Part shown: positions 3,873 through 32,000 of the stretch, piece by piece
Position numbering within the stretch: the first letter of the stretch is position 1
Layout: the number at the start of each line of letters is the position of its first letter
From: Gemmata obscuriglobus
GTDB taxonomy: Bacteria > Planctomycetota > Planctomycetia > Gemmatales > Gemmataceae
Reading direction: 5' to 3'
Assembly (NCBI RefSeq): GCF_008065095.1
Contig: NZ_CP042911.1
Location: 6,120,001 to 6,152,000 of the forward strand
DNA: 32,000 bases
Made by a program: the position numbers and the translations under genes
Notes under the pieces: generated by a model
What the model was told of the DNA's origin: nothing
The model's database searches: none
Seen by the model: the letters and a program-made list of their open reading frames with translations, nothing else

Positions 3873-3939
3873 TTGACGAGCCGCGACCGCCAGGGAGCGG
3901 TGCCACGTATCCCGCTCCCTGGCGGTCGCGGCTCGTCAA
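3873..3939. repeat. Perfect 28-bp inverted repeat (11-nt loop), GC-rich palindromic element / possible terminator downstream of the kinase gene
   Basis: 3873-3900 (ttgacgagccgcgaccgccagggagcgg) is the exact reverse complement of 3912-3939. It lies 60 nt past the kinase stop on the minus strand, and no U-tract follows on either strand. Confidence 0.9.
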
Positions 3940-3998
3940 GAAAGCGGCAGTATTACCGGGTACGTGTATCGGGCCAACGAGCGCGAGGGAATGAGCAG

Positions 3999-5972: not shown

Positions 5973-6035
5973 GACAGTACCCCTCAGGCGCCCGCGCGTG
6001 GAGAGGCGTATTGTACCAAAGTCGGGCGAGCGGCG

Positions 6036-6575: not shown

Positions 6576-6605
6576 AGCGGTTGGATGCGGCGGGCGCCCC
6601 GTCGG

Positions 6606-6899: not shown

Positions 6900-6910
6900 A
6901 CGTCCTCCGA

Positions 6911-6992
6911 GTCACAGGTCGGCAGGTCCCAAGTCCCAAGCCGAACGGCGTGGCCTTCTTGACTGGGGACTTGGGACCTGCCGACCTGTGAC
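6911..6992. repeat. Perfect 27-bp inverted repeat (28-nt loop) filling the intercistronic gap
   Basis: 6911-6937 (gtcacaggtcggcaggtcccaagtccc) is the exact reverse complement of 6966-6992. On the minus strand it starts 8 nt after the TAG of the upstream gene (7000-7002) and ends 2 nt before the SD of the 6606-6899 gene. Confidence 0.9.
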
Positions 6993-6999
6993 AACTATT

Positions 7000-7947: not shown

Positions 7948-8077
7948 GGGAAGCGCTCCGAAGAGAGGGTGCGAGACGAGGGGATTGTATGCGCCGCGGC
8001 GCCGTGTCCGCCCGGCGTCTCCGAAATCCGTTTGGGCCGACTGGCGCAACCCGCACATTCCCGAAAAACCGAGCTCT

Positions 8078-9320: not shown

Positions 9321-9337
9321 CAGTAGTTTCAAGTTGG
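9321..9337. repeat. IS left terminal inverted repeat
   Basis: cagtagtttcaagttgg, the exact reverse complement of 10561-10577. Confidence 0.9.
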
Positions 9338-9360
9338 GCGATTTATGAGTAGCGGGCCGC

Positions 9361-10569
9361 ATGGGTTTACCGGTCAATGGTGGTTACCACGCCTCCACTG
9401 TCGGAGCCCCCATGCGACCCAAACGTCAGTCTATCCGAGCCACCCCGGCCCACGCCACCCGGCACCTCCGTCCGGTCCTGACCGACTGGCTCGGCCGTGC
9501 GGTCCAACTGCCCAAGCGTCGCCGCACCTGTACACCCGAGGTGGTGTGGCGGGTGGTGCTGTTCGCCGCGGCGTTCGCCCGCTCGGTGGCCGCGGCCTGT
9601 GCCGCGATCGCCGACGCCCCGTCCGGGCAGGCCATCTGGGATTGCTTGTACCTCACGCTGCCCAAGCGGCGCCGCACCCTCGAGCGGCGGTTGCGGCCGG
9701 CCCTCCACGCCCCGCTCGGCAAGCGGAAGCGGGCGGCTCGGGTCGCGATCGACTACCACCGGATCGGGTACTTCGGGACGCCGAACCGGGACACCACCCG
9801 GTCCAAGGGGGCCGGCGGCACCCACACGTTCCACACGTACGCCACCGCGTGCCTCGTCGGGGGACCGGACCGGTACACGCTCGGGTTGACGGCCGTGGGC
9901 GAGAAGGAGCCGATGACCGCGGTGCTCACCCGGCTGTTGGATCAGGTGACGGCGGCACGGGTTACGGTCCGGGTCGCGCTGCTGGACAAGGCGTTCTTCT
10001 CGATCGCGGTGATGCGGTTGCTCCAGGCGCGGGGTGTGCCGTTCGTGATCCCGGCCGTGGTCCGGGGCCGCAAGCCCCGGCCCGGGGTGAAGGGGGTCGG
10101 GTTGCGGGCCGTGCGGCGGCGGGGCGCGGGTCGATATGCGTACACCCACGCGGATCGGGGCACCTCGGTGCGGGTGCACGTGGTGATCGCTCACAAGAGC
10201 TACCGGTACCGGCGGACCGGGGGCCGGCGGAGCAAGAAGTTACTGTACGCGGCGTGGCGGGTGAGCGGGAGCCCGGTGGCGATTCGGGACCTGTACCGGA
10301 CCCGATTCGGGATCGAGAGCAGCTACCGCCAGTTGGGGCAGGTTCGGCCCCGGACCTCGACCACCGATGGGGTCGTGCGACTCCTGTGGGTGGCCGTCGG
10401 GCTGATCCTGCGTAACGCCTGGTTGTGGTCCCGCTCAGCCCGCGGCCTCGGGTGGACACTGGCGGCGGTATGCCTGATACTGTTGGCCGATGGGCTGGCA
10501 CCTACAGATGGCGAAAATAAGTCCATTACTACTGCACGATCGGCCAACAAAACCAAGCCGCCAACTTGA
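9361..10569 (+). CDS. DDE transposase (IS4/IS5-superfamily-like; family not assignable by eye)
   Basis: 402-aa ORF filling the IS and ending inside IRR. It has 'VALLDKAFFS' (candidate catalytic D) and 'YRTRFGIESSYRQLGQ' (Y-x2-R-x3-E signature of DDE_Tnp_1-type enzymes). An alternative start ATG at 9412 (MRPKRQS) has a better GGAG upstream. Confidence 0.85.
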   Translation: MGLPVNGGYHASTVGAPMRPKRQSIRATPAHATRHLRPVLTDWLGRAVQLPKRRRTCTPEVVWRVVLFAAAFARSVAAACAAIADAPSGQAIWDCLYLTLPKRRRTLERRLRPALHAPLGKRKRAARVAIDYHRIGYFGTPNRDTTRSKGAGGTHTFHTYATACLVGGPDRYTLGLTAVGEKEPMTAVLTRLLDQVTAARVTVRVALLDKAFFSIAVMRLLQARGVPFVIPAVVRGRKPRPGVKGVGLRAVRRRGAGRYAYTHADRGTSVRVHVVIAHKSYRYRRTGGRRSKKLLYAAWRVSGSPVAIRDLYRTRFGIESSYRQLGQVRPRTSTTDGVVRLLWVAVGLILRNAWLWSRSARGLGWTLAAVCLILLADGLAPTDGENKSITTARSANKTKPPT

Positions 10570-10577
10570 AACTACTG
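10561..10577. repeat. IS right terminal inverted repeat
   Basis: ccaacttgaaactactg, the exact reverse complement of 9321-9337. Confidence 0.9.
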
Positions 10578-12129
10578 GAATCTTCCCGGGCGGTTCGAAC
10601 CCGTACTGTTTCGCGAGTTCCGCATGGGTCTCTTCCAGCACGTCCGCCAGAAACGCCGCGAGCACGTGGTCGTTCTTCTTGTCGAACCGGATCACGAAGT
10701 GTGCCGTTTCCGTCGTCGCGTACCCGGCGAGTTCTTCGAGCACTTTGAGCGCGTTATCAACCCGCACGTTGAACGGGTCGGCTTTCATCGAGGCCTTGAG
10801 CGCCGCCATCGCCTCCGGCTCGCGCCCCTGCATGTACAGGAGCAGTCCCAAACCGGCCTTCGGACCGGGAAGCGCTGGCCGCAGGGCGCTGGCCGTCTCG
10901 AAGCACTCGGTGGCGGTTTGGAACTGGCGCGCGTCGCTCAGGATGGTGCCGAGTTCCAGGTAGAACGTCGCCGGCTTCGCATCAAACGCGGCCACCTCCT
11001 TCTCGAACGCTGCGGCCGCCGGCCGGTCGCCCGCCAGGTGCTTGAGCGCGGCGAACCGGGCGAGCGTGGCGGCGTCGCGCGGGTTGATCGCGCGCGCGGT
11101 CCGGAGCAACTGTTCGGCGCCGGCAGGATCGGCCTCGGCGAGGCGGACGTCCGCCTTGAGCCGCAGCGCGGCGGGGTGATTGGGGTTCACCTTCAGCGCC
11201 AGATCGGCGCGACGCTCGGCCTCGGCGTACTCCATCCGCTCCAGCGCGATCGCCCCCTTTCCCACCAACGCCTCGACCGCCTTGGGGTTGATCTTGAGGG
11301 CGGCGTCGAACGCGTTCGCGGCCTCGGCCCGGTTGTGCTTGCTGAGCAGCAACTGGCCGCTCAGGTGCTCCGCGGGCCAGAAGTCGGCGTCCGGCTTGAG
11401 GGCGTCGCGCAGCAGCTCTTGGAGGATGAACTTGAACTGCTCGTGCTTCGCGTGGGTGGTGGCGTTCTCGATCCCGGCTTGCGCGACGATGAGCAACTTG
11501 TCGGGGTCGGTGATCTCCTTCCCCGCCGCGGCCGCGTCGGTGTACGCCTTTACGAACCATCGCATCTCGGTGTCGGCGCCGGACAGGTCGCCCCCGTCGC
11601 GCAGAACGCGGGCGCGGACCCAGCGTGCGAGGAAATGGTCGCCGTCCTTCTTGAGCACGTCGTTGGCATCGTGGGTGGCGTCGTCCCACTTGCCTTGCGC
11701 GAAAAGCAGATCGGCGCGGGCGGCGAGGAGGTCGGGGTGACCGGGGTGCGCCTTCAACCCTGCGTCGAGCGCGTCGCGGGCCTTCGCGTACTCGCCCTGA
11801 GCGCGGAGACACGCCGACTGGCCCAGGAACGCGAGCGGGAGCTTTTCGCTCCTGGCGAGGTCATCGTAACCGGCCAGCGCTTCCGCGTAGTTGCCGCGCA
11901 AGAGTCGTTGCCGCAGCGCGGGATAGTCCGCTTTGGGTTGCGAAGCGAAGAACTCACCCGCCGGCCCCGCACCACTGAAGCGAGAGAAAGAACCGGGTCG
12001 CGCCGTCCACGTTTCCGGCGCACGGGGGGCGGAGCCTGAGCGCGCTCCCCTTCCCTTCAGTAGGGCGGCGCCGGAGGAGGTGGTAGGCCCGCTGAACCCG
12101 ACGAGTACGGCAAGGATTGGAACCATCAT
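10578..12129 (-). pseudogene. N-terminal fragment of the IS-disrupted TPR + peptidase gene (signal peptide + TPR repeats)
   Basis: Signal-like MMVPILAVLVGFSG, followed by many TPR-like helices. In the track ORF (10435-12129) everything after '...QYGFEPPGKI' is translated from IS sequence (PVVSSWRLGF...). Confidence 0.8.
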
Positions 12130-19867: not shown

Positions 19868-19979
19868 ACTGCCCTCTAGTCTTTGGCGCCCCGCATAATT
19901 TTAGGGCGCGCAAAAACAGAGGGCGGTAACTGAGCAGAAGATTCAGCACAATCGGGCTGAAATAAGGTTGGTACGCTCC

Positions 19980-20333
19980 TTACTTCTTGGGTCCCTTCTT
20001 CGGCTGCGGCTTCTCGTCTTCGTCCCCGTCAAGGTCCTCGTCGTCCTCGTCGTCCTCGTCGTCCTCGTCGTCATCCAGATCGTCGTCGTCAAAATCCTCG
20101 TCGTCGTCGAAGTCATCGTCGTCGAGGTCGTCGAGGTCATCGTCGAGGTCGTCGAGGTCGTCGTCCTCGAGGTCGTCGAGGTCGTCGTCGTCGTCCTCGT
20201 CATCATCGTCGTCATCGTCCTCGAAATCTTCGTCTTCGTCGTCGGCGGCGAGAACGGGGGTGAGCAGTTCGTCGAGCCACGACAGGTCTTCCGTCGGGGC
20301 GAACCCGGCGGAAAGAAGGAGACTGGCGGCCAT
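19980..20333 (-). CDS. Hyper-acidic small protein (117 aa; 65 of 77 consecutive residues are D/E) with short basic C-terminal tail
   Basis: ATG at 20333 has GAGGA 8 nt upstream; the track's 20414 start is a TTG. The sequence is MAASLLLSAGFAPTEDLSWLDELLTPVLAA + D/E tract punctuated by L/F + KPQPKKGPKK. Only this frame avoids poly-S/poly-V nonsense and has a good RBS. Confidence 0.6.
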   Translation of the reverse strand: MAASLLLSAGFAPTEDLSWLDELLTPVLAADDEDEDFEDDDDDDDEDDDDDLDDLEDDDLDDLDDDLDDLDDDDFDDDEDFDDDDLDDDEDDEDDEDDEDLDGDEDEKPQPKKGPKK

Positions 20334-20713
20334 GCGGTCGATCCTCGTGTACGGGTGATGGCCGTTGGACCGGATAGCCCCACTGCTATCGGCGTCCGCC
20401 GGCGCGGAATCCAATTCTCAAACCCGTTCGCGGGCGGGCGCGAGGCCCCGCGTCGGAGTAAGCGGTCTCGTCGCTAGAGCGGTCAAGGTGCGCACAGGTT
20501 CGCCCCGTGTGTGGCTCGCGGACCGTAACCTACAACCACCATGGTGCGGTCAAAGGTAGGCGCTTCTTAGGAACGGGTTCGGAGCGTGTCAAGAACTCCT
20601 TTCGAACTTTCCGAAGTTCCGCAAAAGCCTGCAAAACGCGGCCTTGCGACACGGCTCCGGGCGCCCCGTACAATCGGCTCAGCCCACACGTTCGTTCCCC
20701 ACAAAGGCACGCT

Positions 20714-21487: not shown

Positions 21488-21722
21488 CATTCGCCCTTCA
21501 CAGAGGACGACACGCACGCTGTGAAGCGCGAGCGCGCCGGCCGCTTGCGATGTGCCGTGCGCGCGCCAATGAGACCCGTCAGAGCCGCCCAACACATCGT
21601 CGCCCGTTTGCCCATCACCATATCCTTGCTCATCCCGGCTCGAACCGTCGCTGAAAAAAACGGTGTCCCTTGCGGGCGGACCGGGCACTAATTGTGTGTG
21701 CCGCCGTGGCAAGGAGACCGAC

Positions 21723-24611
21723 ATGCTGGACCCGCGGACCGGAACCGCGCTGTACCGCGCCGCATCCCGAGCCGGCCCCGGCGCGGCGGCCACCGACCGG
21801 GCGCTCCTGGAGCGGTTCGCCCGGGACCACGACCCGGGCGCGTTCACCGAGTTGCTCGCGCGACACGGGCCGACCGTTTGGGCCGTGTGCCGGCGCGCCA
21901 CCCGCACCGAAGCCGATGCCGAGGACGCGTTCCAGGCCACGTTCCTGGTGCTGGCGCGCCGGGCCGCCCGGGTGCGGAAAGCCGCGTCCGTCGGGAGCTG
22001 GCTGTACGGAGTCGCCTCCCGGATCGGGCGGAAAGCACGGGCGCGGGCCGATCGCGCCCCCGATCCCGCGCGGCTTATGTCGCCCTCCCCTGCCCCTCCG
22101 CCGGACGCCGGGTTGAGCTGGAGCGAAGTCCGGACCGCCCTCGACGAGGAACTCGCGCAGCTCCCCGACGACCTCCGCGCGGTCGTGCTGCTGTGCTACT
22201 TCCAGGGGCTCACGCAGGACGAAACCGCGGCCCAACTCGGCTGGACCGCCCGCACCGTCAAGGCGCGTGTCGCCCGCGCACGCGGACTGCTTCGCGCCCG
22301 GCTCACCCGCCGCGGCATCGAACTGGCAGCCGCCCTCGCGGTCCCGCTCCTCACCGCGGACGCGGGGGCCACCGTTCCACCGCACCTTCGCACCGCGCTG
22401 GCCTCATTCGCCACCGACATGACGCGAGGCGCCCGCACGGGGCTGCGATTGTCGCCGTCGGTCGTCGCCCTCGCCCGAACGGAGGTCTCTGCCGTGAAGA
22501 TGATCCGTCTTGTCGCACTCTGCGCCACCGCCGCCGGGTTGATGGCCGCCGGCATGTTGTCCGGCCGCCCACCCGTATCCCCCACCGGGAACGCCACCGC
22601 CGCTGCGCCCGTGTCCGCCCCACCGGCCCCTGAACCGCCTCAGAAGATCCCGGCGGCGGGCGTGCGGATCGGCACCACCGAGTTCCGGCAAGTGGGATGG
22701 CACTCCCGGGTGTTCTTCGCCAACGGCGGGAAAACGCTGCTCACCGCGGGCGAAGGCGCGATCGTCCGGTTCTGGGACATCGAGCAAGGGAAAACGACCC
22801 ACGAGATTCAACTAAAGGGTCTCTACAACGACGCCGCGGCCACTCCCAGCGGCGACCTGCTGGCCGTTGCCGGCATCCACTGGCCGAAGGGGAAGGATCA
22901 AGACAGCGAGCCCGTGTTGTGGTTGATCGACACGCCGCGTCGCACCGTCCGACACACCGTCGCGTTGCCCCCGCGGCTGGGAGGCAACAGCCAGAAAGTC
23001 GCCCTCAGCGCCGATGGACGGCGCGCGGTTGTCGAGCAAGAGGGCGACGTTCAGGTGATCGACACCAAGTCCGGTGAGGAACTGATGCGGCACAAGGGCC
23101 GCATCAACGCCGGCACCCTCGCCGTGTCACGCGACGGCAAGCGGATCGCGTTCGGCCGGCACGACCTGTACTTATGGGAGTGGGAGTCCGGTGAGGAGCC
23201 CCGCAAGCTCGCGAGCCGAAGTGTAACCGGGGTCGAGACCGCGGCGTTCGCACCCAACGGCAAGTCGCTCTACGCTGTGGCGGACGGCGGCAAAGTGGCG
23301 TGGCTCGACGTAGCCACCGGACGGCGCACCGGAACGCTCGATCTCGACGGGACGCCGTGGAAATGGTCCTTTAGTCCGGACGGCCGAACGATCGCCGTCA
23401 CGTATGTGAGTCATTTACGATCCAAGAGCAGCGGCGCAGTGGTTCTGTGGGACCCGCTTAGCGCCAAAGAGATCGGCCGGTTCCCGGTCGGCCAGACCGA
23501 GGCGAAACATGTGAGCTGGTCGGCCGACGGAACCCGTCTGGCGGCGGTGACCAACTACCGGCTGTGGGTATGGGACGTGAAGACGGGGAAGCCGATCGGA
23601 CCGTCCTCGATCGGCCACGAGGGCCAAGTCTCCGGGTTCGCGTTCGGACCGGACGGTCGGCTCTTCACCGCTGGCGACGACCACACCGTCCGATCGTGGT
23701 CCCCGGACACCGGGGCTCAAGGTCTGGAGCTGATCCACGACAGTTGGGTGCGGGGCGTCGCCGTTTCGCCCGACGGCGCGCTCGTGGCGGGCTCAGCGCT
23801 CCGCAACGATCTGAGGATCTGGGACGCGAAGACCGGCGCCGAGCGGTTCCGGCTGCTCGGCAACGGTGAATCGGGCGGACAGCGCCGGGCGCGGTTCACT
23901 CCGGACGGCCGCCGCCTCGCCGCCTGGGGCGATGACATGTACCTGCGGGTGTGGGACACGCGCAACGGCAAGCTCCTCTCCGAGCACCGAACCGTACCCG
24001 CGGGGATAACCGAAGCCCAGCTCGATGACCCGTGGCAGCACAAATACCTGCTGCTGGGCTTCGCGGCCGCGGACATCAGCGCCGACGGCTCGACCTTCGC
24101 GTTCTGCAACTCCAAGGCCGTTCAGGTCTTCGACGCAACCACCGGCAAACAGCGAGGCGCGTTCGAGCCCGACCCCAACGGGGTCACCGCGCTCGCGCTG
24201 TCGCCGGACGGTCAGGTGCTCGCGACCGCCGGGCGCGGCACGGTGACCGAGACGCGGTCACCCGACGGGCGCACACGTTCGACCGCGGCCGACGATCACC
24301 GAACGGTGCTCCGGGACGTCGCCACCCAAAAGGTCTTGTGGGGGGCGACCTCGCCCGGATCGTGGAGCGGCGGGCTCACGTTTTCTCCCGACGGCAAGCT
24401 TCTCGCCGAGGTGACGGGGGAGGAAAAGGGCTATGCCGTCCGTGTGTGGGAGGTGGGGTCCGGAAAGGAACTCGGCCGGATCGCGCTCCCGGGGCGCGGC
24501 AATCAGGTCACGTTCGACCGCACCGGGCGGCGGTTGGCCGTCGCCAACTGGGACACCACGGCGACCGTGTACGACCTGGACACCGCGCTCAAGCCCGTTG
24601 AACCCAAGTGA
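21723..24611 (+). CDS. ECF (sigma-70 family) sigma factor fused to a TM helix and a large C-terminal WD40 beta-propeller region (962 aa)
   Basis: Sigma region 2 (DRALLERFARDHDPGAFTELLARHGPTVWAVCRR...AEDAFQATFLVLARRA) and region 4 (LPDDLRAVVLLCYFQGLTQDETAAQLGWTARTVKARVARARGLLRARL). TM helix MIRLVALCATAAGLMAAGMLSG (about 22497-22565). Many blades follow, such as 'FSPDGRTIAV' and 'AGDDHTVRSWSPDTG'. AAGGAG lies upstream of ATG 21723. Confidence 0.9.
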   Translation: MLDPRTGTALYRAASRAGPGAAATDRALLERFARDHDPGAFTELLARHGPTVWAVCRRATRTEADAEDAFQATFLVLARRAARVRKAASVGSWLYGVASRIGRKARARADRAPDPARLMSPSPAPPPDAGLSWSEVRTALDEELAQLPDDLRAVVLLCYFQGLTQDETAAQLGWTARTVKARVARARGLLRARLTRRGIELAAALAVPLLTADAGATVPPHLRTALASFATDMTRGARTGLRLSPSVVALARTEVSAVKMIRLVALCATAAGLMAAGMLSGRPPVSPTGNATAAAPVSAPPAPEPPQKIPAAGVRIGTTEFRQVGWHSRVFFANGGKTLLTAGEGAIVRFWDIEQGKTTHEIQLKGLYNDAAATPSGDLLAVAGIHWPKGKDQDSEPVLWLIDTPRRTVRHTVALPPRLGGNSQKVALSADGRRAVVEQEGDVQVIDTKSGEELMRHKGRINAGTLAVSRDGKRIAFGRHDLYLWEWESGEEPRKLASRSVTGVETAAFAPNGKSLYAVADGGKVAWLDVATGRRTGTLDLDGTPWKWSFSPDGRTIAVTYVSHLRSKSSGAVVLWDPLSAKEIGRFPVGQTEAKHVSWSADGTRLAAVTNYRLWVWDVKTGKPIGPSSIGHEGQVSGFAFGPDGRLFTAGDDHTVRSWSPDTGAQGLELIHDSWVRGVAVSPDGALVAGSALRNDLRIWDAKTGAERFRLLGNGESGGQRRARFTPDGRRLAAWGDDMYLRVWDTRNGKLLSEHRTVPAGITEAQLDDPWQHKYLLLGFAAADISADGSTFAFCNSKAVQVFDATTGKQRGAFEPDPNGVTALALSPDGQVLATAGRGTVTETRSPDGRTRSTAADDHRTVLRDVATQKVLWGATSPGSWSGGLTFSPDGKLLAEVTGEEKGYAVRVWEVGSGKELGRIALPGRGNQVTFDRTGRRLAVANWDTTATVYDLDTALKPVEPK

Positions 24612-24622
24612 GGGAGAACGTC

Positions 24623-25861
24623 ATGGTCGAGATCCTGCTCGCGTGGCTCGCGACGCTGCCGGCACCCGCACGGCCGGCGGGATTGGCGCCGGACCTGGCC
24701 CCACCGGTCCACGTCACGGCCGACGGCCGCCCCCTGGACGTGGAGCGCGTCGGGCACGCCGCGCCGTTCGTCGGCGACTTCTACGGCGACGGCAAGCCGG
24801 CCCTGCTGGTCGGGCAGTTCGACGGCGGGAAGCTCCGGGTGTACCGCAACGTCGGCACCAGGACCGAGCCGAAGTTCGGCGCGTTCGAGTGGTTCAAGGC
24901 CAGTGACGCGCTGGGCACCATCGAGCCCGGGTGAGACATCGGGTTCTGTCCACAGTTGGTGGACCTCGACGGCGACGGAAAGGGCGACATCATCTCCGGC
25001 TCCTGGCCGGGGCCGATCACTTGGTTCCGCCGCACCGGCGAAACGTTCGCGGGCGGCGAAACGCTCAAGCACAAGGACGGCACGCCGGTGAACCCGGCGA
25101 ACGGGTCGCACGCCTTCGCGTTCGACTGGGACGGCGACGGCTTGCCGGACCTCGTCATCGGCACCGCCGGCGGCGAGGTGATGCTCGCGCCCAACGTCGG
25201 CACCCGCGACCGGCCCGTGTTCGACCGGGCGAAGCCGCTCACGGCCGGCGGCCAGAAGCTCACGGCTCCGAGCGGGTGCGCCGCCCCCGTGGTGGCCGAC
25301 TGGGACGGCGACGGCCGGCCGGACCTCGTCGTCGGTGCCGAGGACGGGAGCGTGGTCTGGTTCCGCAACGCGGGGACCCGCCGGGAGCCGAAGCTCGCGG
25401 CGGCGCAAACGCTGGTGCCGCCCAGCCCGTCGCCCCGGCACGACGACAAATCCCGCCGGCCCGGCGAGTGGGGGATGCGCGCCCGCCCGGCGGTGGTGGA
25501 CTGGGACGGCGACGGCAAGCTCGACCTGCTCGTCGGTGACGTGTGCGGCGGCTACGAGGGGAAGCCGCAGGCGACGGCGGACGAGGCCGCCGAGCACAAG
25601 GGCGCCGCGGACCGTCTCCCCGCCCTCCGAAAGGAGTGGGCGGCTGCGTACAAGGAGTTCGCGGCGCTGTCGGACGCCCCCGAGCCGACCGACGCACAAA
25701 AGCGGGCCGCTCACCGGGTTCAGGTGGCCCGGCTGCGGACCAAGGTGACACGGCTGAAAGACGAGATCACCCAACTGCAGGACGTGCGCGACCGTTACGG
25801 GGCGGGATACATGCGCCACGGGTACGTGTGGCTGTTCAAGCGGGTCGAGCCGGCAAAATGA
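24623..25861 (+). CDS. FG-GAP/VCBS-type repeat protein with C-terminal coiled coil, interrupted by one in-frame TGA (24932-24934): pseudogene, recoding or selenoprotein candidate
   Basis: Track ORFs 24608-24934 and 24956-25861 are in the same frame, separated only by TGA. The D-x-DGDG repeat series runs across the stop (GDFYGDGKPALLVG / VDLDGDGKGDIISG / FDWDGDGLPDLVIG / ADWDGDGRPDLVVG / VDWDGDGKLDLLVG). GGGAGA lies upstream of ATG 24623, 11 nt after the upstream stop. Confidence 0.65.
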
Positions 25862-25874
25862 GGAGGAAACGCTT

Positions 25875-27068
25875 ATGAACACGGCACGCCTCGGCGCGAT
25901 GCTCGCGCTGCTCACCGGCCCCGCGGCCTTCACCGGCGCCGCGCCCCCGCCGCCGCAACCGGTCCAGGTGCGGTCGCTCGCCTACGCGCCGGACGGAACC
26001 GTTCTCGTCGCGGCGACGGGCGGCGGGACGGGGGGAGCGGGCGGCGTGGTGGCATGGGACGCGGCCACCCGGAAACAGCTCTGGGCGCGTAGCGGCCCCA
26101 AAGGGTTCGGGTCCGTCTCGTTCGCGCCGGACGGCAAGTCGATCGCGGTGACGCACGGCGCGGCGACCGTGCTGCGGCTCGCCGCGCTGACCGGTCAGGA
26201 GATGGGTGAGGTCGGCCCGCACCCGAAGCCCGTGCGGGCCTGCGTCTACGTACCAGGCACGGGGCACCTGGCCACGGGCAGCGACGGAACCGTCCGTTTT
26301 TGGGACCTGGCGACCGGCAAAGTGGTCAAGGAACTGAAGGGCGGCCACCCGGCCGAGATCAACAGCTTGACAGTCTCGCCCAACGGGAAGTGGCTCATTT
26401 CCGGAGGGCCGGACGGCACCCGGGGCTGGGACGTGGCCACCGGGGCGGAGCTCAAGAACGGGTTCAAGCAGGAACGCGGGATCGCCTGGTACGGGCCGAC
26501 CTTTGTCGGCCCAGACCGGGTTCTGTTCGCAGACAACTCCGCCACCCAGTATCTGCTCGAGCTGCCCTCGGGCCGGGAGTTGCTGCGTTACGAGGGCTTC
26601 GGGGGCGGTATCGCCTACTCACCGGCTCTCGGCGTCGCGGCGTTCCACTGGGACGGCACGAACGTTCACATCATGGACCTCGCCTTCCGCGCCCCCACTG
26701 CGGCCGAACAGGCACGTATTGAGAGCCTGCTGAAGGAGTTCGACGACGACTCGTACCCGGTGCGGGTCGCCGCATCGAAAGCCATGCGACAGGTCAGCTC
26801 GGTGGCCGAACCGGCACTCCGCAAGGCGATGACCGACGGCCCCAGCGCCGAGGTGCGGATGCGCGCCCGCGTGACCCGTAAAGCCATCCTGGAGGAACCG
26901 CTCCGCACCCTCAAGGGGCACACGGCCCGTGTGCGGCCGATGTGCTTCTCCCCGAACGGCAAAGTGCTAGCCACCGGAGCCGAAGACGGGACCGTGCGGC
27001 TCTGGGACCCGAGTACCGGGAAGGAACTGGCCCGGCTGACGGCCCCCGATCCCGGCGTCCAACAGTGA
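25875..27068 (+). CDS. Exported WD40 repeat protein with inserted HEAT-like helical module
   Basis: Signal peptide MNTARLGAMLALLTGPAAFTGA. WD blades include 'ATGSDGTVRFWDLATGK', 'SGGPDGTRGWDVATGA' and 'TGAEDGTVRLWDPSTGK'. The helical insert is 'LLKEFDDDSYPVRVAASKAMRQVSSVAEPALRKAM'. A strong GAGGAGG lies upstream, 13 nt after the previous stop. Confidence 0.85.
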   Translation: MNTARLGAMLALLTGPAAFTGAAPPPPQPVQVRSLAYAPDGTVLVAATGGGTGGAGGVVAWDAATRKQLWARSGPKGFGSVSFAPDGKSIAVTHGAATVLRLAALTGQEMGEVGPHPKPVRACVYVPGTGHLATGSDGTVRFWDLATGKVVKELKGGHPAEINSLTVSPNGKWLISGGPDGTRGWDVATGAELKNGFKQERGIAWYGPTFVGPDRVLFADNSATQYLLELPSGRELLRYEGFGGGIAYSPALGVAAFHWDGTNVHIMDLAFRAPTAAEQARIESLLKEFDDDSYPVRVAASKAMRQVSSVAEPALRKAMTDGPSAEVRMRARVTRKAILEEPLRTLKGHTARVRPMCFSPNGKVLATGAEDGTVRLWDPSTGKELARLTAPDPGVQQ

Positions 27069-27352: not shown

Positions 27353-28222
27353 ATGCCTCAGCCGTTTTTCCGTTCCCGGCGTGGGTTCACGCTGATCGAG
27401 CTGCTGGTGGTGATCGCCATCATCGCGATCCTCATCGGCCTCCTCCTCCCGGCCGTCCAGAAGGTGCGTGCCGCCGCCGCCCGAATCCAGAGCGCGAACA
27501 ACCTCAAGCAGATCTCGCTGGCGCTGCACAGCTACCAGGACACCGTGAACCACCTGCCCGACGTGGACGGCAACATCGGCGGGACCAGCGGGCGCACCAT
27601 CACCTCCGTCCACACCTTCCTTCTGCCGTACATCGAGCAGGGCTCGGTGCTGACGCTGGCCGAGCAGAACGGCCTGTGGGGACCGGCCCCGAACTCCGCG
27701 TCGAGCAAGAAGATCAAAACGTACTTGTCGCCCCGCGACCCCTCCAACCCCGGGGACTTCCTCAACGAAAACGGGAACGACTGGGCGCACTGCAACTACG
27801 GTTACAACGAGGCCGTGTTCACCGACCCGTACGTCGCCTGGAACCCGCGGCTGACGCTGCAACGGATTTCCGACGGCACCTCCAACACGGTGGCGTTCGG
27901 CGAGCAGTACGCGCTGTGCAACGGCAACCACCGGGTGTGGGGGTACCCCGCGATCGTCAACCAGTCCTGGACCCCGAACTTCATTCCGCCCGACATCAGC
28001 GGCGGGGCGCCGGTCAACTGGACCCCGCCCGCCGCCCCGCCCCAGGCCGTGCCCACGGTCGCCAACTGCAACCCGTCGAACGTCCAGGCGATGGACGCCG
28101 GGGGCTGCCTGGTCGGCATGTTCGACGGGAGCGTGCGCACCGTCTCAACGTCCATCAGCGGCACCACGTGGTTCGCGGTCATCTGGCCGAAGGACGGGTT
28201 GGTGGTTGGAAACGACTGGTAA
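27353..28222 (+). CDS. DUF1559 domain protein with type IV pilin-like N-terminal cleavage/methylation signal
   Basis: '[55 protein letters not shown]' is the canonical planctomycete DUF1559 N-terminus. The C-terminal block is '...[15 protein letters not shown]'. Confidence 0.9.
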
Positions 28223-28260
28223 CCACGGCACCGTCAAAAGTCACACCTAACGTCACACCT

Positions 28261-28297
28261 AGGGGCCGCCGTTCCGGCGTTAGGAGCGGCGGCCCCT
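28261..28297 (+). terminator. GC-rich hairpin (11-bp stem, 15-nt loop) between the DUF1559 gene and the lipoprotein gene; possible attenuator/terminator
   Basis: aggggccgccg (28261-28271) is the reverse complement of cggcggcccct (28287-28297). No U-tract follows. It is preceded by the direct repeat gtcacaccta at 28240-28249 and 28252-28261. Confidence 0.35.
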
Positions 28298-28320
28298 GGG
28301 CTCTTGGCCCCGGACCTCAC

Positions 28321-28767
28321 ATGCTCTCGACAACCGCTCTCACACACCGCTGGCTCCTCACAGTCGCCGGCGCGGCGCTCGTGCTCACCGCCGCACCGGG
28401 CTGTTCCGGTCAGAAGACCCAAAACGTCTCCGGCGTCGTCACGCTCAACGGTAAACCGCTCACGTCCGGCGTGATCCGGTTCCACGGCCCGGGGGACCGG
28501 ATGGCGACCGCCAACATTCAGCCGGACGGCACGTTCGTCGCAACCGACGTGATGCCCGGGGAGGTGAAGGTCGCGATCACGGAGTCACTGATCGCCGCGG
28601 GGGGAGCACGTGCGACCCCGAACGCGGCGAAGAGCCAGGGGCTGAGCGCGCCGGAGCAACCGAAGCGCGTCGCCATCCCGCCGAAGTACAAGGACGTGAG
28701 CACCAGCAACCTGAACTACACGATCACCTCGTCCACGGGCAACCTGGAAATCGCTCTCCAATCCTGA
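28321..28767 (+). CDS. Small putative lipoprotein, carboxypeptidase-regulatory-like beta-sandwich domain
   Basis: MLSTTALTHRWLLTVAGAALVLTAAPGC (signal with a Cys lipobox-like site), then 'VSGVVTLNGKPLTSGVIRFHGPG...IQPDGTFVATDVMPGEVKVAI'. The start is set at ATG 28321 inside the longer track ORF 27676-28767, whose upstream part overlaps the DUF1559 gene out of frame. Confidence 0.7.
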   Translation: MLSTTALTHRWLLTVAGAALVLTAAPGCSGQKTQNVSGVVTLNGKPLTSGVIRFHGPGDRMATANIQPDGTFVATDVMPGEVKVAITESLIAAGGARATPNAAKSQGLSAPEQPKRVAIPPKYKDVSTSNLNYTITSSTGNLEIALQS

Positions 28768-28857: not shown

Positions 28858-31800
28858 ATGAAACGGACCGCCGCCCTTCGCCTCGTCCGCACCGCGGCAC
28901 ACGCGCCGCTGGCCGAAGCCAGTGACGCCGAACTCCTCCAGCGCTTCTGCCAAAATCGGGACGAGTCCGCGTTCCGCGAGATTCTGCGGCGGTACGAGGC
29001 GCTCGTCCGCGGCGCGAGCCGGCGCATGACGCGAGACGGTCACGCGGTCGATGACGCGGTCCAGAACACGTTCCTGACCCTGGCCCGCAAAGCCCACGCG
29101 ATCCGCCACGCGCCCGCCCTGCCCTCGTGGCTGCACCGCGTGGCCCGGTCCGTCACGGCCCGAACCGCCGGCGCGGCCCCCGCCGGCGCCGAGCCGATCG
29201 ATCCGACCCCCTCGCCGCTGGATCAGCTCTCGGCCCGCGAGGTCCTGAGCATCCTGGATGACGAACTCGCCCGGTTGCCCGCGACCTATCGGTCGGCCGT
29301 TTTGCTGTGCCTCGTCGAGGGGAACACAGTCGAGGACACAGCCCGGCGCCTGGGGACGACCACCGGCGCGGTCCGCGGGTGGCTCCAGCGCGGCCGGGAG
29401 GCACTGCGGCACCGGCTGAGCCGGCGCGGCGTGGAGCTTTCGGCGGCGCTACCCCTACTGGCTCTCGGTACCCAGCCAGCAACCGCAGGCCCGGTGCACG
29501 ACGCACTCGTCCGGGTGGCGCTGGCGGCGCACCGCCCCGCGTCTGCCGTCACGCGGTTGCTAGCGGGCTTTTCCGTTGCGTCGGTGGTGGCGTTCGGTGT
29601 CCTGATCGCTGGCGTCGCCGCGTCCGCCGCACTCATGTCCCCACGAGCCGGCGACCCACCGCCGGTGGCGCCGAAGGCGGCGGAACCGGAACCCAAAGTG
29701 GAAGCCAGAACCGACGGGTTGGTCACCCGGGACGGGTTGCCCGAAGGGGCGGTCGCGCGGATCGGCTCGCCGCGCCTGCGGCACGCAGGCGAGGTCACCG
29801 CAATGGCCTTCAGCCGCGATGGCCGGCTGTTCGCCACGGCCTCCCCCGCGAATCGGGACAAGTCGGTCCGTGTGTGGGACATGACCGACGGCAAGGAGAA
29901 GTACCGCATCCCGATCGCTGTGAACCTGGACGAAAGCGCAGAGCGTGCCCGGGCCGTATCTGTGGCGTTCTCGGCCGACGACAAGCGGCTACTGGTCCTG
30001 GACGCGGACGGGTTCCGGTCGTTCGACGTCGGCACCGGCAAGCCGGAACGGACGAACGTTCTGCGCAGGCGAACGGAGCCGAACCTATTTCCTCCACGCG
30101 AAGAGACCATCGGGGCCGGCTTTTCCCCGGACGCAAAGGTATACGCCGTTGTCCGGGGTAGCGGGGAAATGGTGCTGGGCAACACCGCCACGGGCGAAGT
30201 GACACGCACGATCGCGAAAGCGATGACCATCCCCGAGAACATGGGGTACGCCCATGTGAACGTTCTGTTCACCCCGAACGGGACCGGGGTTTGCGTTCCG
30301 ATCCTGAATGCCGCGGTTCCGATCTTCGACACGCAAACCGGAGAATCCAAGCACTCGCTGGCAAAGGAACTCGTCTCCCAAAGCAACACAATCTACAGCG
30401 CCGCGTTCGCGGCAGACGGGCGCACGTTCGTTGCCGACACCCTCGCACGGGCGGAGGGGGAGCGAGTTGCCGCACCTTACGCGATCGCGGTCGGGGACGT
30501 TGCGACCGGTAAAGTGGTGCGAACCATCCCACTGCCAGAGATGCCCCGTGTGCTGAGCGTGAGTCCGAACGGCAAGCTCGTGGCGGTCGGCACGCAATCG
30601 AGCGGGCCGAGCCAGATACGGGTTCTGGACTTGGCGAGCGGCAAGGAAGTGCAGTCCGTTCCGCTCACCCTCACGCCCGCCCTGGTGACGTTCTCCCCCG
30701 ACTCCCGGTTGCTCGCCGGCACGTGCCACTACGAAGGAAAAGTGACCGTGTGGGATCTCGGAAAGAACGGCCTCCACCCGCAATCAGCAGACGATTTTGA
30801 CATATGGGCACACTTCGACGCCCGTGGTCACGTGGTGCTGAACCCGTTCGGCCGAACACATATGGTCGATTGGCGGAGCGGAAAGGTGGTGCAAGAACGG
30901 TCGCGGGGACCCGAACCGAGCTACCAACCCGGCACCGCCAAGTCCGGGGATGGTAAGCTGCGCGCCGAGATCGAGTTTCCAAAGGGCAAACCGCAACAGT
31001 CGCGGGCGATTTTGGTGAAGGAGTCGGCTACGGACCGGACGGCGGCGCGGCTGGAGGGTCTGACCGATTTCCCGCGGCGAATGGTGTTCGCAGACGGGAA
31101 CCGCCTGCTCGTGACGGCCACCCAAGACGATGTGCTAACGGTTTGGGATGTCGGGGCCAAGAAGTCACTCTGGTCAGAGAAGTACCCCGCTCGAGCCTTC
31201 GGTTACAGCGGAATGGGCGAGCCCCATTCCGACGCCGCAAACCGCCGGATGGCGATCGCCTGGAGGGGCCAAAACGCAACTGTCATCGACGTGTGGGAAC
31301 TGCGCCGTCCCACGCGCGTGTCGCGGGTGGAAGTTCCGAACGCGCTGCTGGCCGCAGGTATCGCCTTCTCCCCGGACGGAGCGTACATCGCGGGTGGGAA
31401 CGATGCGGTCACGCTCTGGCGGGTGTCGGACGGCCGGAAGGTCCAGACCCTCGGCGGCCATGCGGCCAAGGAGGCGCGCAACGACCGCCCGAGGATATCC
31501 TGTGCGTTTTCGCCGGACAGTGGGAAACTGCTCACCGTCGATGGCACGGGAACGATCCGGTTGTGGGAGTGCGTGAGCGGGCAGTTGATCCGCACGTTCT
31601 CCGGGCACCACGGCCCGACCAGTGCTCACTTTTCACCGGACGGGCGACTGATCGTCGGAGCGAGCTACGATGCCCCCGTACTGATTTGGGATGTATACGG
31701 GCTAAAAGACCCACCCGCCTTCAACGCCGAGCGAATTTGGTCCAATCTGGCGGACGCCTCACCCGCAGCGGCCTTCCGGGCGGTGCGGGAACTGTGCGCC

Positions 31801-32000
31801 GCCCCCAAAGAAGCCGTCGTCCTGTTAAAGGAGAAATTGCCCCCGGAATCACTCGATGGGAAAGCGATCGACGCGCTGATTAAGGGCCTCTCTTCGGAGC
31901 AGTTCGCGGACCGGGAGCGAGCCACAACCGACCTCGGGAAGTACGGCGAATCGATCGCCCCGATGCTTCGCCAGGCGAACGGCGCCACCACGGACGCAGA
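28858..32000 (+). CDS. Second ECF sigma factor - TM helix - WD40 (+ HEAT-like) fusion protein, 3'-truncated by the window edge (>1047 aa)
   Basis: Not in the supplied ORF track. I translated frame 1 by hand from ATG 28858 to 32000 and found no stop codon. Sigma region 2 'SDAELLQRFCQNRDESAFREILRRYEALVRGASRRM...DDAVQNTFLTLARKA'; region 4 'LPATYRSAVLLCLVEGNTVEDTARRLGTTTGAVRGWLQRGREALRHRL'. TM helix 'LLAGFSVASVVAFGVLIAGVAASAALM' (about 29557-29637). WD blades 'KSVRVWDMTDGK', 'GKVTVWDLGKNG', 'DGTGTIRLWECVSGQ' and 'DAPVLIWDVYG'. Confidence 0.9.
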   Translation, partial: MKRTAALRLVRTAAHAPLAEASDAELLQRFCQNRDESAFREILRRYEALVRGASRRMTRDGHAVDDAVQNTFLTLARKAHAIRHAPALPSWLHRVARSVTARTAGAAPAGAEPIDPTPSPLDQLSAREVLSILDDELARLPATYRSAVLLCLVEGNTVEDTARRLGTTTGAVRGWLQRGREALRHRLSRRGVELSAALPLLALGTQPATAGPVHDALVRVALAAHRPASAVTRLLAGFSVASVVAFGVLIAGVAASAALMSPRAGDPPPVAPKAAEPEPKVEARTDGLVTRDGLPEGAVARIGSPRLRHAGEVTAMAFSRDGRLFATASPANRDKSVRVWDMTDGKEKYRIPIAVNLDESAERARAVSVAFSADDKRLLVLDADGFRSFDVGTGKPERTNVLRRRTEPNLFPPREETIGAGFSPDAKVYAVVRGSGEMVLGNTATGEVTRTIAKAMTIPENMGYAHVNVLFTPNGTGVCVPILNAAVPIFDTQTGESKHSLAKELVSQSNTIYSAAFAADGRTFVADTLARAEGERVAAPYAIAVGDVATGKVVRTIPLPEMPRVLSVSPNGKLVAVGTQSSGPSQIRVLDLASGKEVQSVPLTLTPALVTFSPDSRLLAGTCHYEGKVTVWDLGKNGLHPQSADDFDIWAHFDARGHVVLNPFGRTHMVDWRSGKVVQERSRGPEPSYQPGTAKSGDGKLRAEIEFPKGKPQQSRAILVKESATDRTAARLEGLTDFPRRMVFADGNRLLVTATQDDVLTVWDVGAKKSLWSEKYPARAFGYSGMGEPHSDAANRRMAIAWRGQNATVIDVWELRRPTRVSRVEVPNALLAAGIAFSPDGAYIAGGNDAVTLWRVSDGRKVQTLGGHAAKEARNDRPRISCAFSPDSGKLLTVDGTGTIRLWECVSGQLIRTFSGHHGPTSAHFSPDGRLIVGASYDAPVLIWDVYGLKDPPAFNAERIWSNLADASPAAAFRAVRELCAAPKEAVVLLKEKLPPESLDGKAIDALIKGLSSEQFADRERATTDLGKYGESIAPMLRQANGATTDA

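Follow-up and report, generated by a model that had tools for sequence, protein, structure and literature searches.

An ECF sigma factor fused to a WD40 sensor and its two exported propeller partners, one a probable selenoprotein: a proposed signalling module of Gemmata obscuriglobus

Three adjacent genes of Gemmata obscuriglobus are proposed to form an operon that acts as a transmembrane signalling unit with a sigma factor as output, in which the gene 2 product is a selenoprotein and three propellers build an input module with exchangeable heads. We rate this reading as a whole at slightly better than an even chance; the evidence favours three extracytoplasmic propellers that serve as an input module coupled to transcription. 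Gene 1 would encode a one-polypeptide ECF sigma factor of the ECF57 / ECF01-Gob kind, joined by a linker and one transmembrane (TM) helix to an outside double WD40 propeller, with the products of genes 2 and 3 as secreted partners of that propeller. A UGA in gene 2 would be decoded as selenocysteine (Sec) with the aid of a hairpin 12 nt downstream, and the resulting Sec-Cys pair would sit in the loop entering the second D-x-D-x-D-G repeat. The three propellers would constitute a conserved input module that was joined during evolution to an ECF sigma factor, to a BlaR1-type zinc protease acting on BlaI, or to an anchor only. An extracellular change, most likely in the redox/adduct state or ligand occupancy of the Sec-Cys site, may alter the propeller complex and be relayed via the single TM helix so that the sigma domain is freed or activated. 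The sigma factor may then transcribe its own operon from a conserved TGTCCC-N15-GCACTA promoter.

Organisation of the locus

The genes lie in the window, a 32,000-nucleotide stretch of the Gemmata obscuriglobus chromosome taken as a whole:

21723..24611, + strand: gene 1 (WP_010041595.1), ECF sigma, linker, TM and double WD40 propeller, 962 aa
24623..25861, + strand: gene 2, exported FG-GAP β-propeller with C-terminal helical hairpin, 412 aa if UGA is decoded
25875..27068, + strand: gene 3 (WP_010041590.1), exported WD40 propeller with four-helix HEAT-like insert

Gene 1 starts at ATG 21723 and its stop codon occupies 24609-24611. The ATG of gene 2 (24623) is found 11 nt past this stop, preceded by GAGGGAG, and that of gene 3 (25875) 13 nt past the stop of gene 2, preceded by GGAGGA, as an earlier sequence-only reading had described for these spacers and their Shine-Dalgarno sites. 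There are no terminator-like sites between the three genes. The same reading saw neither an anti-sigma factor nor a site-1/site-2 protease gene in the window, and Pfam finds neither in the remaining large ORFs of the stretch. A second sigma-WD40 paralogue starts in the same window at about 28858. The candidate Sec codon of gene 2, the BlaR1/BlaI and head-less versions of the module and the promoter-like element go beyond what had been noted earlier.

Gene 1, its promoter-like motif and the proposed release of sigma

Gene 1 and its upstream region were divided as follows:

21650..21690, + strand: candidate autoregulated ECF promoter with A-rich tract, -35-like and -10-like elements (putative function)
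21684..21702, + strand: inverted repeat GGCAC-N9-GTGCC overlapping the -10-like element
21852..22295, + strand: cytoplasmic sigma domain, region 2 (aa 44-110) and region 4 (aa 139-191), from Pfam and NCBIfam TIGR02937
22296..22493, + strand: conserved post-sigma-4 linker (aa 192-257), motif RRGIELSAALAVPLL
22494..22565, + strand: single TM segment (aa 258-281), from hydropathy and its conserved position in orthologues
22566..24608, + strand: extracytoplasmic part with Pro-rich spacer, entry motif R-I-G-T-x-x-F-R and ~650 aa of WD40 blades (Pfam)

The assignment of gene 1 as a real ECF sigma factor, tethered by one TM helix to a WD40 part outside the cytoplasm, is supported. Pfam detects Sigma70_r2 at aa 44-110, Sigma70_r4_2 at aa 139-187 and Sigma70_r4 up to 191, and TIGR02937 (sigma70-ECF) scores 76.9 bits for a cut-off of 42.9. 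Matches to ECF sigma factors of the PDB lie mostly inside aa 15-199, and PDB sequence matches for query aa 1-260 stop at about residue 204. Linker residues R193, R196, R197, G198 and L210 are invariant in alignment A4, and the region aa 190-330 has zero Pfam family matches even at E ≤ 10, leaving no recognisable anti-sigma domain there. A Pro-rich stretch directly follows the TM segment and WD40-type propellers extend from ~aa 330 to 962 (Pfam). This sustains the earlier picture of a 962-aa ORF with sigma regions 2 and 4, a linker of ~60 aa, one TM segment and WD40 blades, except that the segment was called strong: its Kyte-Doolittle value of 1.84 (1.75-2.27 in orthologues) is moderate. A second membrane segment is in principle conceivable at aa 199-216, a weakly hydrophobic stretch.

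The promoter-like element combines TGTCCC (21664-21669) and GCACTA (21685-21690) across a 15-nt spacer and ends 32 nt 5' of the gene 1 ATG. The bipartite motif, with a spacer of 15-16 nt, is present upstream of all five sigma-fused orthologues (window, L001, L002, L006 and L008). The pattern occurs once in the window for 0.01 occurrences expected by chance and is absent elsewhere in 86 loci, being unique to the sigma-fused orthologues. GCAC/GTGC arms with loops of 5-9 nt recur at the corresponding position upstream of all five orthologous genes; the inverted repeat may serve as an operator or as a hairpin of the 5' leader.

By analogy with IutY-type sigma/anti-sigma hybrids, regulated proteolysis of the tether is the most likely route by which sigma would be released. 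It is also conceivable, though rather unlikely, that sigma is never released and works, or is silenced, while membrane-tethered in the manner of ToxR or CadC, under the control of a conformational or oligomeric change or of metal binding or a disulfide at C56/C158, the outside propellers serving mainly for localisation or assembly. Cys56 and Cys158 of the sigma domain are indeed invariant in 10 sequences (alignment A4), a sigma-2/sigma-4 link via these cysteines was proposed for ECF57 (PMC8999054), neither a protease nor an anti-sigma domain was found by the scans above, and a tethered sigma could come close to DNA through the strong membrane invaginations of Gemmataceae (PMC8567305). However, the same sensor is fused elsewhere to proteases of the BlaR1 type, which are known to act by proteolysis, and a sigma factor must join core RNA polymerase. 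We know of no example of a membrane-tethered sigma factor that stays active.

A conserved triad under three heads

A large WD40 protein, an FG-GAP protein with Sec or Cys and a WD40 protein bearing a HEAT-like insert make up a triad whose synteny is kept in 11 of the 12 orthologous loci, counted as those with tail-bearing gene 2 orthologues. This conservation across relatives supports the downstream genes as genuine partners of sigma-WD40, as had been suggested. The loci include Frigoriglobus L001, Gemmataceae MAGs L002 (where the triad genes overlap by 4 nt), L006-L008 and L010, Pirellulaceae L009, Fuerstiella L004, metagenome contigs L085 and L086, and the P0041 contig.

The same large WD40 is found under three heads, namely an ECF sigma, a BlaR1-type M56 protease accompanied by a BlaI repressor, and a bare signal anchor. 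It is orthologous under all three, with end-to-end alignment over ~650 aa (E ≤ 2e-55) and 28-63% identity among orthologues versus 24% for the paralogue of the same window (E 9e-13). The BlaR1-headed orthologues (L004, L085) keep the HELAH motif, have their last TM just before the WD40 and a BlaI-family gene upstream. Since triads without a head also occur (L007, L009, L010 and the P0041 contig), the module has a function of its own that is not necessarily signalling. In the searchable literature we found neither the syntenic triad, nor one WD40 under three heads, nor the promoter-like motif shared by the sigma-fused orthologues.

The three propellers could instead form a periplasmic structural, lectin-like or enzymatic complex, acting for example on envelope glycans or in redox chemistry, whose head would report its assembly state as feedback on synthesis with no sensing of an external signal. 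We find this improbable. It would accommodate the head-less triads, the closest folds of gene 2, which are lectin-type FG-GAP propellers, and the more distant Sec-FG-GAP homologues, which occur in unrelated neighbourhoods beside oxidoreductases, aldehyde dehydrogenase and S9 peptidases. Yet none of the three gene products has a recognisable catalytic domain, and the module was fused twice independently to heads that control transcription, which argues for its state feeding into gene regulation. Several observations run counter to the signalling unit that we privilege: neither an anti-sigma domain in the linker nor a protease gene in the operon or the window was found, triads occur head-less, and distant Sec-FG-GAP homologues have unrelated neighbours.

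That the β-propeller and repeat domains lie outside the cytoplasm, as the sequence-only reading held, is backed by three lines of evidence. The unfused orthologues start with an N-terminal signal anchor in place of sigma and TM, immediately before the shared WD40 entry motif; in the BlaR1-headed orthologues the WD40 comes after the last TM, the position of BlaR1's external sensor; and the N-termini of all the gene 2 and gene 3 homologues inspected resemble signal peptides. All three speak against a cytoplasmic WD40 extension that would be a scaffold for cytoplasmic partners, behind a non-spanning hydrophobic segment or two segments, which we judge very improbable; PMC8999054 lists ECF57 under protein interaction and makes no mention of a TM helix, and the moderate TM hydropathy and the stretch aa 199-216 would fit such a topology, but the latter has only ~12 hydrophobic residues and includes charged ones.

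The exported partners and the candidate selenocysteine

Gene 2 matches FG-GAP_3 with 97 bits (Pfam), and its AlphaFold2 model (pLDDT 92.3) comprises a propeller and, after it, a helical hairpin (aa 319-392). Foldseek gives integrin-like FG-GAP propellers as best matches of this model (probability 1.0, E 5e-8 to 1e-6), namely UmbA4 of Streptomyces (9oee), PVL lectin (2bwm) and ITFG2 of KICSTOR, with TM-scores of just 0.33-0.39 and identities of 15-21%; the nearest folds are the lectin-type UmbA4 and PVL lectin. The product of gene 3 forms a WD40 propeller, interpreted as seven-bladed (AlphaFold2, pLDDT 91.5), with a four-helix insert at aa 276-340 (nt 26700-26894) ahead of the last blade. Its earlier description as an exported WD40/HEAT protein holds for the exported WD40; the insert is HEAT-like, its match to HEAT_2 staying under threshold (E = 2.7e-4).

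Gene 2 had been read as an uninterrupted ORF, which overlooked an in-frame TGA:

24932..24934, + strand: in-frame UGA, candidate Sec codon (residue 104), TGA conserved at the column
24947..24965, + strand: SECIS-like hairpin GTCCAC-AGTTG-GTGGAC, 19-nt span beginning 12 nt past the UGA

The ORF listing accordingly shows gene 2 in two pieces (24608-24934 and 24956-25861), and its public annotation covers the C-terminal 300 aa only (WP_029600962.1). This TGA very probably encodes selenocysteine, as judged from TGA at the same column, Cys in homologues, a hairpin with constrained synonymous sites and the Sec-insertion genes, of which G. obscuriglobus is reported to possess a full set (PMC4807772). 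The codon is TGA in 31 of 31 sites from several phyla and TAA or TAG in none; Cys occupies the column in 14 of 18 full-length homologues. The surrounding motif is G-U-D-I-G-F-C in the window and G-U-C-[VI]-G-F in most homologues. Most homologues have a full 7-pair GGTCCAC/GTGGACC stem; that of the window has 6 pairs because the outermost bases of its span (T-C) are unpaired. Across 29 sequences the five core pairs show either no change or compensated changes, the Val codon of the hairpin is GTG in 27 of 27 cases (41% at other Val columns) and its Pro codon is CCA in 76% (versus 5%), the synonymous-site constraint being limited to the hairpin. Covariation of the base pairs is statistically not significant, the support consisting of invariance and codon bias. 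The hairpin is not present in four Cys-form genes examined and matches no Rfam family. Among the top 120 database clusters, 100 are truncated gene calls and 89 of these begin in the hairpin. The Sec-FG-GAP family is found neither in NCBIfam nor in the selenoprotein literature searched.

It is hardly credible that gene 2 is a pseudogene or split gene in which TGA is a true stop and the rest is untranslated or restarted at the TTG or GTG codons found in the hairpin 7-8 codons past it, as the two separate ORFs of the public annotation might suggest, because the interruption is always this one codon at one column, the seven codons up to the supposed restart are conserved as amino acids with variable third positions, Cys-form homologues are continuous, and both halves build a single propeller in the AlphaFold2 model.

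Comparison with known systems

Sigma-TM-WD40 fusions are known from comparative genomics (PMC8999054, PMC7826278, PMC8567305); the Gemmata-expanded ECF-WD40 group mentioned in the sequence-only reading as lacking an established mechanism corresponds to these ECF01-Gob / ECF57 proteins, ECF sigma factors of planctomycetes that are extended at the C-terminus by WD40-like parts (Jogler et al. 2012; Casas-Pastor et al. 2021, PMC7826278; PMC8999054). [quoted passage not shown] The ECF57 / ECF01-Gob literature searched describes no conserved partner genes, TM topology or mechanism. Unlike ECF57 as filed under protein interaction, the extension of gene 1 is assigned an extracytoplasmic position and comes with two conserved secreted partners, one a probable selenoprotein, and its module is also found beneath heads other than sigma.

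IutY of Pseudomonas putida (ECF243; Prc, RseP), a sigma/anti-sigma hybrid with demonstrated regulated intramembrane proteolysis (PMC8999054), is the model for proteolytic release. Its layout is that of gene 1: the ECF sigma comes first, one TM helix follows, and the C-terminal part is periplasmic. The anti-sigma and periplasmic domain of IutY is of the FecR type and a TonB-dependent receptor provides the signal, whereas gene 1 has no detectable FecR-like or other anti-sigma domain and its partners are soluble propellers.

BlaR1/BlaI (MecR1/MecI) systems share the logic of an outside sensor, one membrane-crossing polypeptide and a transcriptional output, and the likeness is direct in L004 and L085, where the same WD40 comes after the final TM of an M56 (HELAH) protease with a BlaI-family repressor gene ahead. 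Gene 1 has a sigma domain and no M56 domain, and in place of a penicillin-binding domain its sensor is a double WD40 propeller accompanied by two partner proteins.

Mammalian thioredoxin reductase ends in Gly-Cys-Sec-Gly, a neighbouring Sec-Cys redox pair, and the propellers of PQQ methanol dehydrogenase bear a vicinal Cys-Cys disulfide. The gene 2 family resembles such systems in the alternation of Sec and Cys at one column with a Cys adjacent or nearby (U-C, C-C, or U-x4-C in Gemmata), in the predicted position of the pair on a β-propeller loop and in the hairpin after the UGA. In contrast to thioredoxin reductase, the order is Sec-Cys, not Cys-Sec, and the site is internal; in contrast to Sec-Cys redox proteins, gene 2 encodes an exported propeller of the FG-GAP type in which neither a redox domain nor a cofactor site is recognisable. 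With the integrin-like FG-GAP lectins (Psathyrella velutina lectin, UmbA4, ITFG2) it shares the D-x-D-x-D-G loops, to which it adds the helical hairpin, a closing C-terminal strand pair and the putative Sec-Cys loop.

Organisation of the three-gene operon

The Gemmata obscuriglobus operon and the sequence elements discussed below are the following:

21650-21702, upstream of gene 1: candidate promoter, A-rich-TGTCCC-N15-GCACTA, with the inverted repeat GGCAC-N9-GTGCC
21723-24611, + strand: gene 1, from the ATG at 21723 to the stop codon at 24609-24611, coding for 962 aa and preceded by the Shine-Dalgarno sequence AAGGAG
24623-25861, + strand: gene 2
24932-24934, + strand: in-frame TGA in gene 2, a probable selenocysteine (Sec) codon at residue 104
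24947-24965, + strand: SECIS-like hairpin GTCCAC/GTGGAC, starting 12 nt after the TGA
25875-27068, + strand: gene 3

Gene 2 starts 11 nt past the gene 1 stop codon and gene 3 starts 13 nt past that of gene 2, each with its own Shine-Dalgarno sequence (GAGGGAG and GGAGGA, respectively). No terminator-like site was found between genes 1, 2 and 3, and a gap of 285 nt separates gene 3 from the next gene. The sequence-only reading had described three closely spaced genes; its account of the gene 1 domains, of the spacers and Shine-Dalgarno sequences and of gene 3 stands, but gene 2 is not the uninterrupted ORF that it had assumed, due to the in-frame TGA. A GTG at 24608 overlapping the gene 1 stop codon (GTGA) is a possible alternative start of gene 2. 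It would lead to a more typical signal peptide (MRENVMVEILL...), and the ATG at 24623 has the better Shine-Dalgarno site.

The surroundings of the operon hold several other features. Between the operon and a second ECF sigma-WD40 gene, at 27353-28767, lie a DUF1559/N-terminal-methylation (pseudopilin-like) gene and, behind it, a small lipoprotein-like ORF; a DUF1559 gene is found also near the orthologous operon of locus L002. The second sigma-WD40 paralogue (28858-32000, + strand; Sigma70_r2, r4_2, WD40) runs off the window end, up to which no FG-GAP or WD40-HEAT partners are visible. A low-complexity region at 19905-20477 can be read either as an extremely acidic, Asp/Glu-rich ORF (19980-20414, minus strand) or as a Val/Leu-rich one (plus strand).

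The membrane-anchored sigma-WD40 fusion

The product of gene 1 is identical to WP_010041595.1 (962 aa). Pfam assigns Sigma70_r2 to aa 44-110, Sigma70_r4_2 to aa 139-187 and Sigma70_r4 up to aa 191, with neither region 1 nor region 3 among the families shown for this protein; it is thus an ECF (group 4) sigma-70 protein, having regions 2 and 4 without 1 and 3. The NCBIfam model TIGR02937 (sigma70-ECF) scores 76.9 bits (cut-off 42.9) and solved ECF sigma structures align mostly to aa 15-199. WD40-type propellers, about 650 aa of blades, extend from around aa 330 to the carboxyl terminus (Pfam). Cys56 in sigma-2 and Cys158 in sigma-4 are invariant in an alignment of the sigma part (A4, 10 sequences). 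Two conserved cysteines at these places have been described for ECF57 (PMC8999054), and gene 1 combines the Cys pair with the WD40-rich C-terminal extension of ECF57 and ECF01-Gob. This type of sigma domain pairs with many different C-terminal extensions, in agreement with the duplication of Planctomycetes ECF sigmas followed by the capture of extensions (PMC7671368).

One hydrophobic segment of the protein (aa 258-281, score 1.84) is found at the same position in the orthologues. It follows a linker of 60 aa and precedes a Pro-rich stretch. Conservation in A4 is strong just after sigma-4, in the segment RRGIELSAALAVPLL. The interval aa 190-330 gives no Pfam match even at E <= 10, and no solved structure matched to aa 1-260 reaches past about residue 204. 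The sequence-only reading saw in gene 1 a sigma factor, anti-sigma factor and sensor in a single polypeptide. The sensor role is retained, as are the two neighbours as its partners, the genes being syntenic in 11 of 12 loci; an anti-sigma role of the linker, though possible, is unsupported because it has no Pfam match at that permissive threshold. Compared with IutY, a sigma/anti-sigma hybrid released by regulated proteolysis, gene 1 shows no recognisable anti-sigma domain on the way from sigma-4 to the TM helix; it shares the single TM helix followed by a C-terminal domain, here probably outside the cytoplasm, judging by the signal-anchored and BlaR1-headed orthologues. No M56 zinc-protease domain (HExxH), as found in BlaR1, is detected by Pfam in gene 1. 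Pfam scans of the other large ORFs also confirmed that no site-1 or site-2 protease gene is visible in the window, nor an anti-sigma gene.

A probable selenocysteine codon in gene 2

The TGA of gene 2 lies in the context ...TIEPG-U-DIGFCPQLVDLDGDGK, where U stands for Sec. The public annotation covers only the part of the gene behind it, the C-terminal 300 aa being identical to the deposited WP_029600962.1. Aligned gene 2 homologues, used to scan genomes, yielded 79 loci. TGA occupies the identical column in 31 sites, including the one in the window, and TAA or TAG in none. The hosts of these sites are Gemmataceae, Pirellulaceae, Isosphaeraceae, other Planctomycetota, Verrucomicrobiota, Phycisphaerae and Sedimentisphaerales. 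The common motif is G-U-C-[VI]-G-F-x-P-Q, replaced by G-U-D-I-G-F-C in Gemmata, Frigoriglobus and locus L006. Cysteine is found at the Sec column in 14 of the 18 aligned homologues that are uninterrupted, mainly as Cys-Cys; its codon is TGC in loci L002, L004, L085 and L086.

The protein parts on both sides of the TGA are conserved among homologues. In the seven codons past it the amino acids are kept and the third positions vary; it follows that translation runs through them in the frame of the TGA. AlphaFold2 modelling of the read-through product gives one propeller with a pLDDT of 92.3. Gene calls in databases are truncated in 100 of the 120 best-matching clusters, 89 of these 100 starting at a TTG or GTG shortly after the TGA. 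The Sec form thus predominates, with its genes systematically mis-annotated. A pseudogene was considered for gene 2 and rejected, as the TGA is in the same column in 31/31 sites and the codons following it are under constraint at the protein level.

A full gene set for Sec insertion was reported for G. obscuriglobus (PMC4807772). The window has no tRNA gene of any kind and none of the genes for SelA, SelB, SelD or tRNA-Sec. NCBIfam has no model specific to the gene 2 or gene 3 family, and the searchable literature gave no link between FG-GAP or VCBS proteins and selenoproteins or selenium. From these sequence comparisons the gene 2 TGA is most probably decoded as selenocysteine, and gene 2 with its homologues probably represents a new selenoprotein family.

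The hairpin that follows the TGA has a stem of 5-7 bp and a 5-nt loop. Its usual form in homologues is GGTCCAC-AGTTG-GTGGACC, of which the outermost pair is lost in the window. The five core pairs are invariant save for two compensated A-U to G-C changes. With only 2 compensatory pairs the covariation is no different from that of shuffles and is not significant; codon-level constraint and the comparison of Sec and Cys forms were therefore used instead. The Val codon of the stem is GTG in 27/27 sequences (41% at five further columns with conserved Val); Pro is encoded by CCA in 76% (5% elsewhere) and Gln by CAG in 26/26. Such constraint at synonymous sites is confined to the hairpin. In four Cys-form genes an identical or nearly identical peptide is specified by different codons, and the hairpin cannot form in any of them. 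Rfam returned no SECIS or other match, either in the whole window at gathering thresholds or in 24880-25030 at E <= 10.

Partner proteins

The AlphaFold2 model of gene 2 has a signal-peptide-like N-terminus, a feature of all the gene 2 homologues examined, followed by the FG-GAP propeller (aa ~25-313), a hairpin of two antiparallel helices (aa 319-351 and 358-392) and two closing strands. FG-GAP_3 matches at 97.1 bits (Pfam cut-off 26.9), and the closest solved folds found by Foldseek are the FG-GAP lectin-type propellers UmbA4, PVL lectin and ITFG2. By its repeats and modelled propeller fold, gene 2 is an FG-GAP beta-propeller protein. Residue 104 stands in the loop entering the strand ahead of the second D-x-D-x-D-G motif. 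Judged from integrin propellers, the loop would connect blades and lie on the ligand-binding face.

The gene 3 product (397 aa) is identical to WP_010041590.1. Its AlphaFold2 model starts with a signal region of low confidence followed by a WD40 propeller, read as seven blades, with an insert of 65 aa forming four helices (aa 276-340) ahead of the last blade. HEAT_2 matches this insert below threshold (21.6 bits, cut-off 27.7; E = 2.7e-4), and one homologous protein (P0271) has a precomputed HEAT_2 match.

Conservation of the triad and exchange of its heads

Synteny was analysed at 12 distinct loci with usable flanks, in each of which the gene 2 orthologue has retained its coiled-coil tail. 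The three-gene arrangement first read from this one locus recurs: a large WD40 protein is encoded immediately upstream of the gene 2 orthologue in 11 of the 12 loci, L011 being the exception, and a gene 3 orthologue follows immediately downstream in those 11 wherever the contig is long enough. The triad genes overlap by 4 nt in L002. The upstream WD40 proteins align end-to-end with the gene 1 WD40 part over ~650 aa with 28-63% identity (E <= 2e-55), compared with 24% (E = 9e-13) for the other sigma-WD40 paralogue of the window. The part preceding the sensor WD40, or head, is of three types:

ECF sigma plus TM helix: the window, L001, L002/L003/L174, L006 and L008
BlaR1-type M56 protease (HELAH), with several TM segments of which the final one is just ahead of the WD40 part: L004 (Fuerstiella) and L085
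Signal anchor only, with the shared entry motif GDPLPxGAxxRLGTxRFRH directly behind it: L007, L009, L010 and the metagenome contig of P0041

A gene for a BlaI-family repressor precedes the M56-headed WD40 gene in both L004 and L085. Their operons, at 4098-10596 and 2439-8429 respectively, code for BlaI, the M56(HELAH)-WD40 fusion, a Cys-form FG-GAP protein and a WD40 protein. No paper mentioning BlaR1 together with WD40 was found in the searchable literature. In locus L015 of Verrucomicrobiota a separate M56 protein is encoded first, then a WD40 protein and then a Sec-form gene 2.

Other combinations were observed. In L039 (2933-7287) a 977-aa fusion of an ECF sigma with FG-GAP repeats is encoded directly upstream of a Sec-FG-GAP gene, seemingly a parallel design based on another kind of propeller. 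L029 (Planctomycetota) carries two Sec-form FG-GAP paralogues (101-1652 and 5767-7338), each with TGA and hairpin, and between them the gene of a 747-aa FG-GAP protein. In L009, a Pirellulaceae MAG, the triad has the order head-less WD40, Sec-FG-GAP, WD40; a 1029-aa protein encoded just upstream (586-3672) has the bpX3 domain, which belongs to the MoxR-vWA-beta-propeller ternary system.

Membership in a triad was rejected as a property of every Sec-FG-GAP homologue. The distant homologues have unrelated neighbours (among them S9 peptidases, GFO/IDH/MocA oxidoreductases, an aldehyde dehydrogenase and separate ECF sigmas), so that the triad represents one specialised subfamily within a wider selenoprotein family.

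Candidate promoter

All five sigma-fused orthologues have upstream the sequence A-rich-TGTCCC-N15/16-GCACTA(A/T), overlapped by GCAC-N5-9-GTGC. One copy of the pattern lies in the window, against 0.01 expected, and the 86 loci hold no further ones; neither the BlaR1-headed nor the head-less versions are preceded by it. Among the matches listed in a metagenome scan with the pattern, one is an orthologue (L174) and the rest are chance matches, which gives no regulon information. The TGTCCC-N15-GCACTA element of the window is a candidate autoregulated ECF promoter, and the overlapping inverted repeat could be an operator or a leader hairpin.

Proposed mechanism and comparison with known systems

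The architecture, the synteny of the three genes, the orthology of the sensor under its three heads, the signatures of Sec decoding and the promoter-like motif were all observed in the sequences. The mechanism that we favour, as somewhat more likely than not, builds on them. The three propellers would assemble into a complex outside the cytoplasm, with the Sec-Cys pair as a possible site that reacts to redox change, to electrophiles or to a ligand. The state of the complex could then be relayed through the single TM helix. Regulated proteolysis might set the sigma part free, for which IutY (PMC8999054) is a precedent and to which the BlaR1-headed relatives also point, and the sigma would then drive transcription of its own operon. 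This mechanism is made less certain by the searches, which found neither a protease nor an anti-sigma domain, and by the head-less triads, which mean that the module has an intrinsic function. A further-reaching and rather doubtful proposal is that the exported FG-GAP selenoproteins are an undescribed family with an extracytoplasmic Sec-Cys sensor of redox state or electrophiles, within a portable three-propeller module that is plugged into either an ECF sigma or BlaR1/BlaI. If that proposal holds, no selenium-dependent signal path across the membrane to transcription would precede this one.

The gene 2 family is widespread and unusual, being an exported propeller and not a classical redox enzyme. 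It is called as two fragments in the Gemmata and Frigoriglobus reference genomes; its correction would improve the annotation of truncated entries and widen the range of selenium-using proteins.

Comparative genomics had already described sigma-WD40 fusions, under the names ECF01-Gob and ECF57 and in the expansions of Gemmataceae (PMC8999054, PMC7826278, PMC8567305, PMC11032199). The searchable literature yielded no previous description of the partner genes and their conservation, of BlaR1/BlaI heads in exchange for the sigma, of the FG-GAP partner as a selenoprotein or of the candidate promoter. These fusions are among the most expanded regulators of Gemmataceae, with about five ECF57 copies per planctomycetal genome, and have so far been without a tested mechanism or known partner, ECF57 being classed under 'protein interaction' without experiment (PMC8999054). 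The locus provides concrete partners for them, and the same sensor, found with a sigma head, with a BlaR1 head and without either, is a natural experiment. The portable-module proposal, if true, would give a mechanism for the so far unexplained ECF57 sigma-WD40 fusions.
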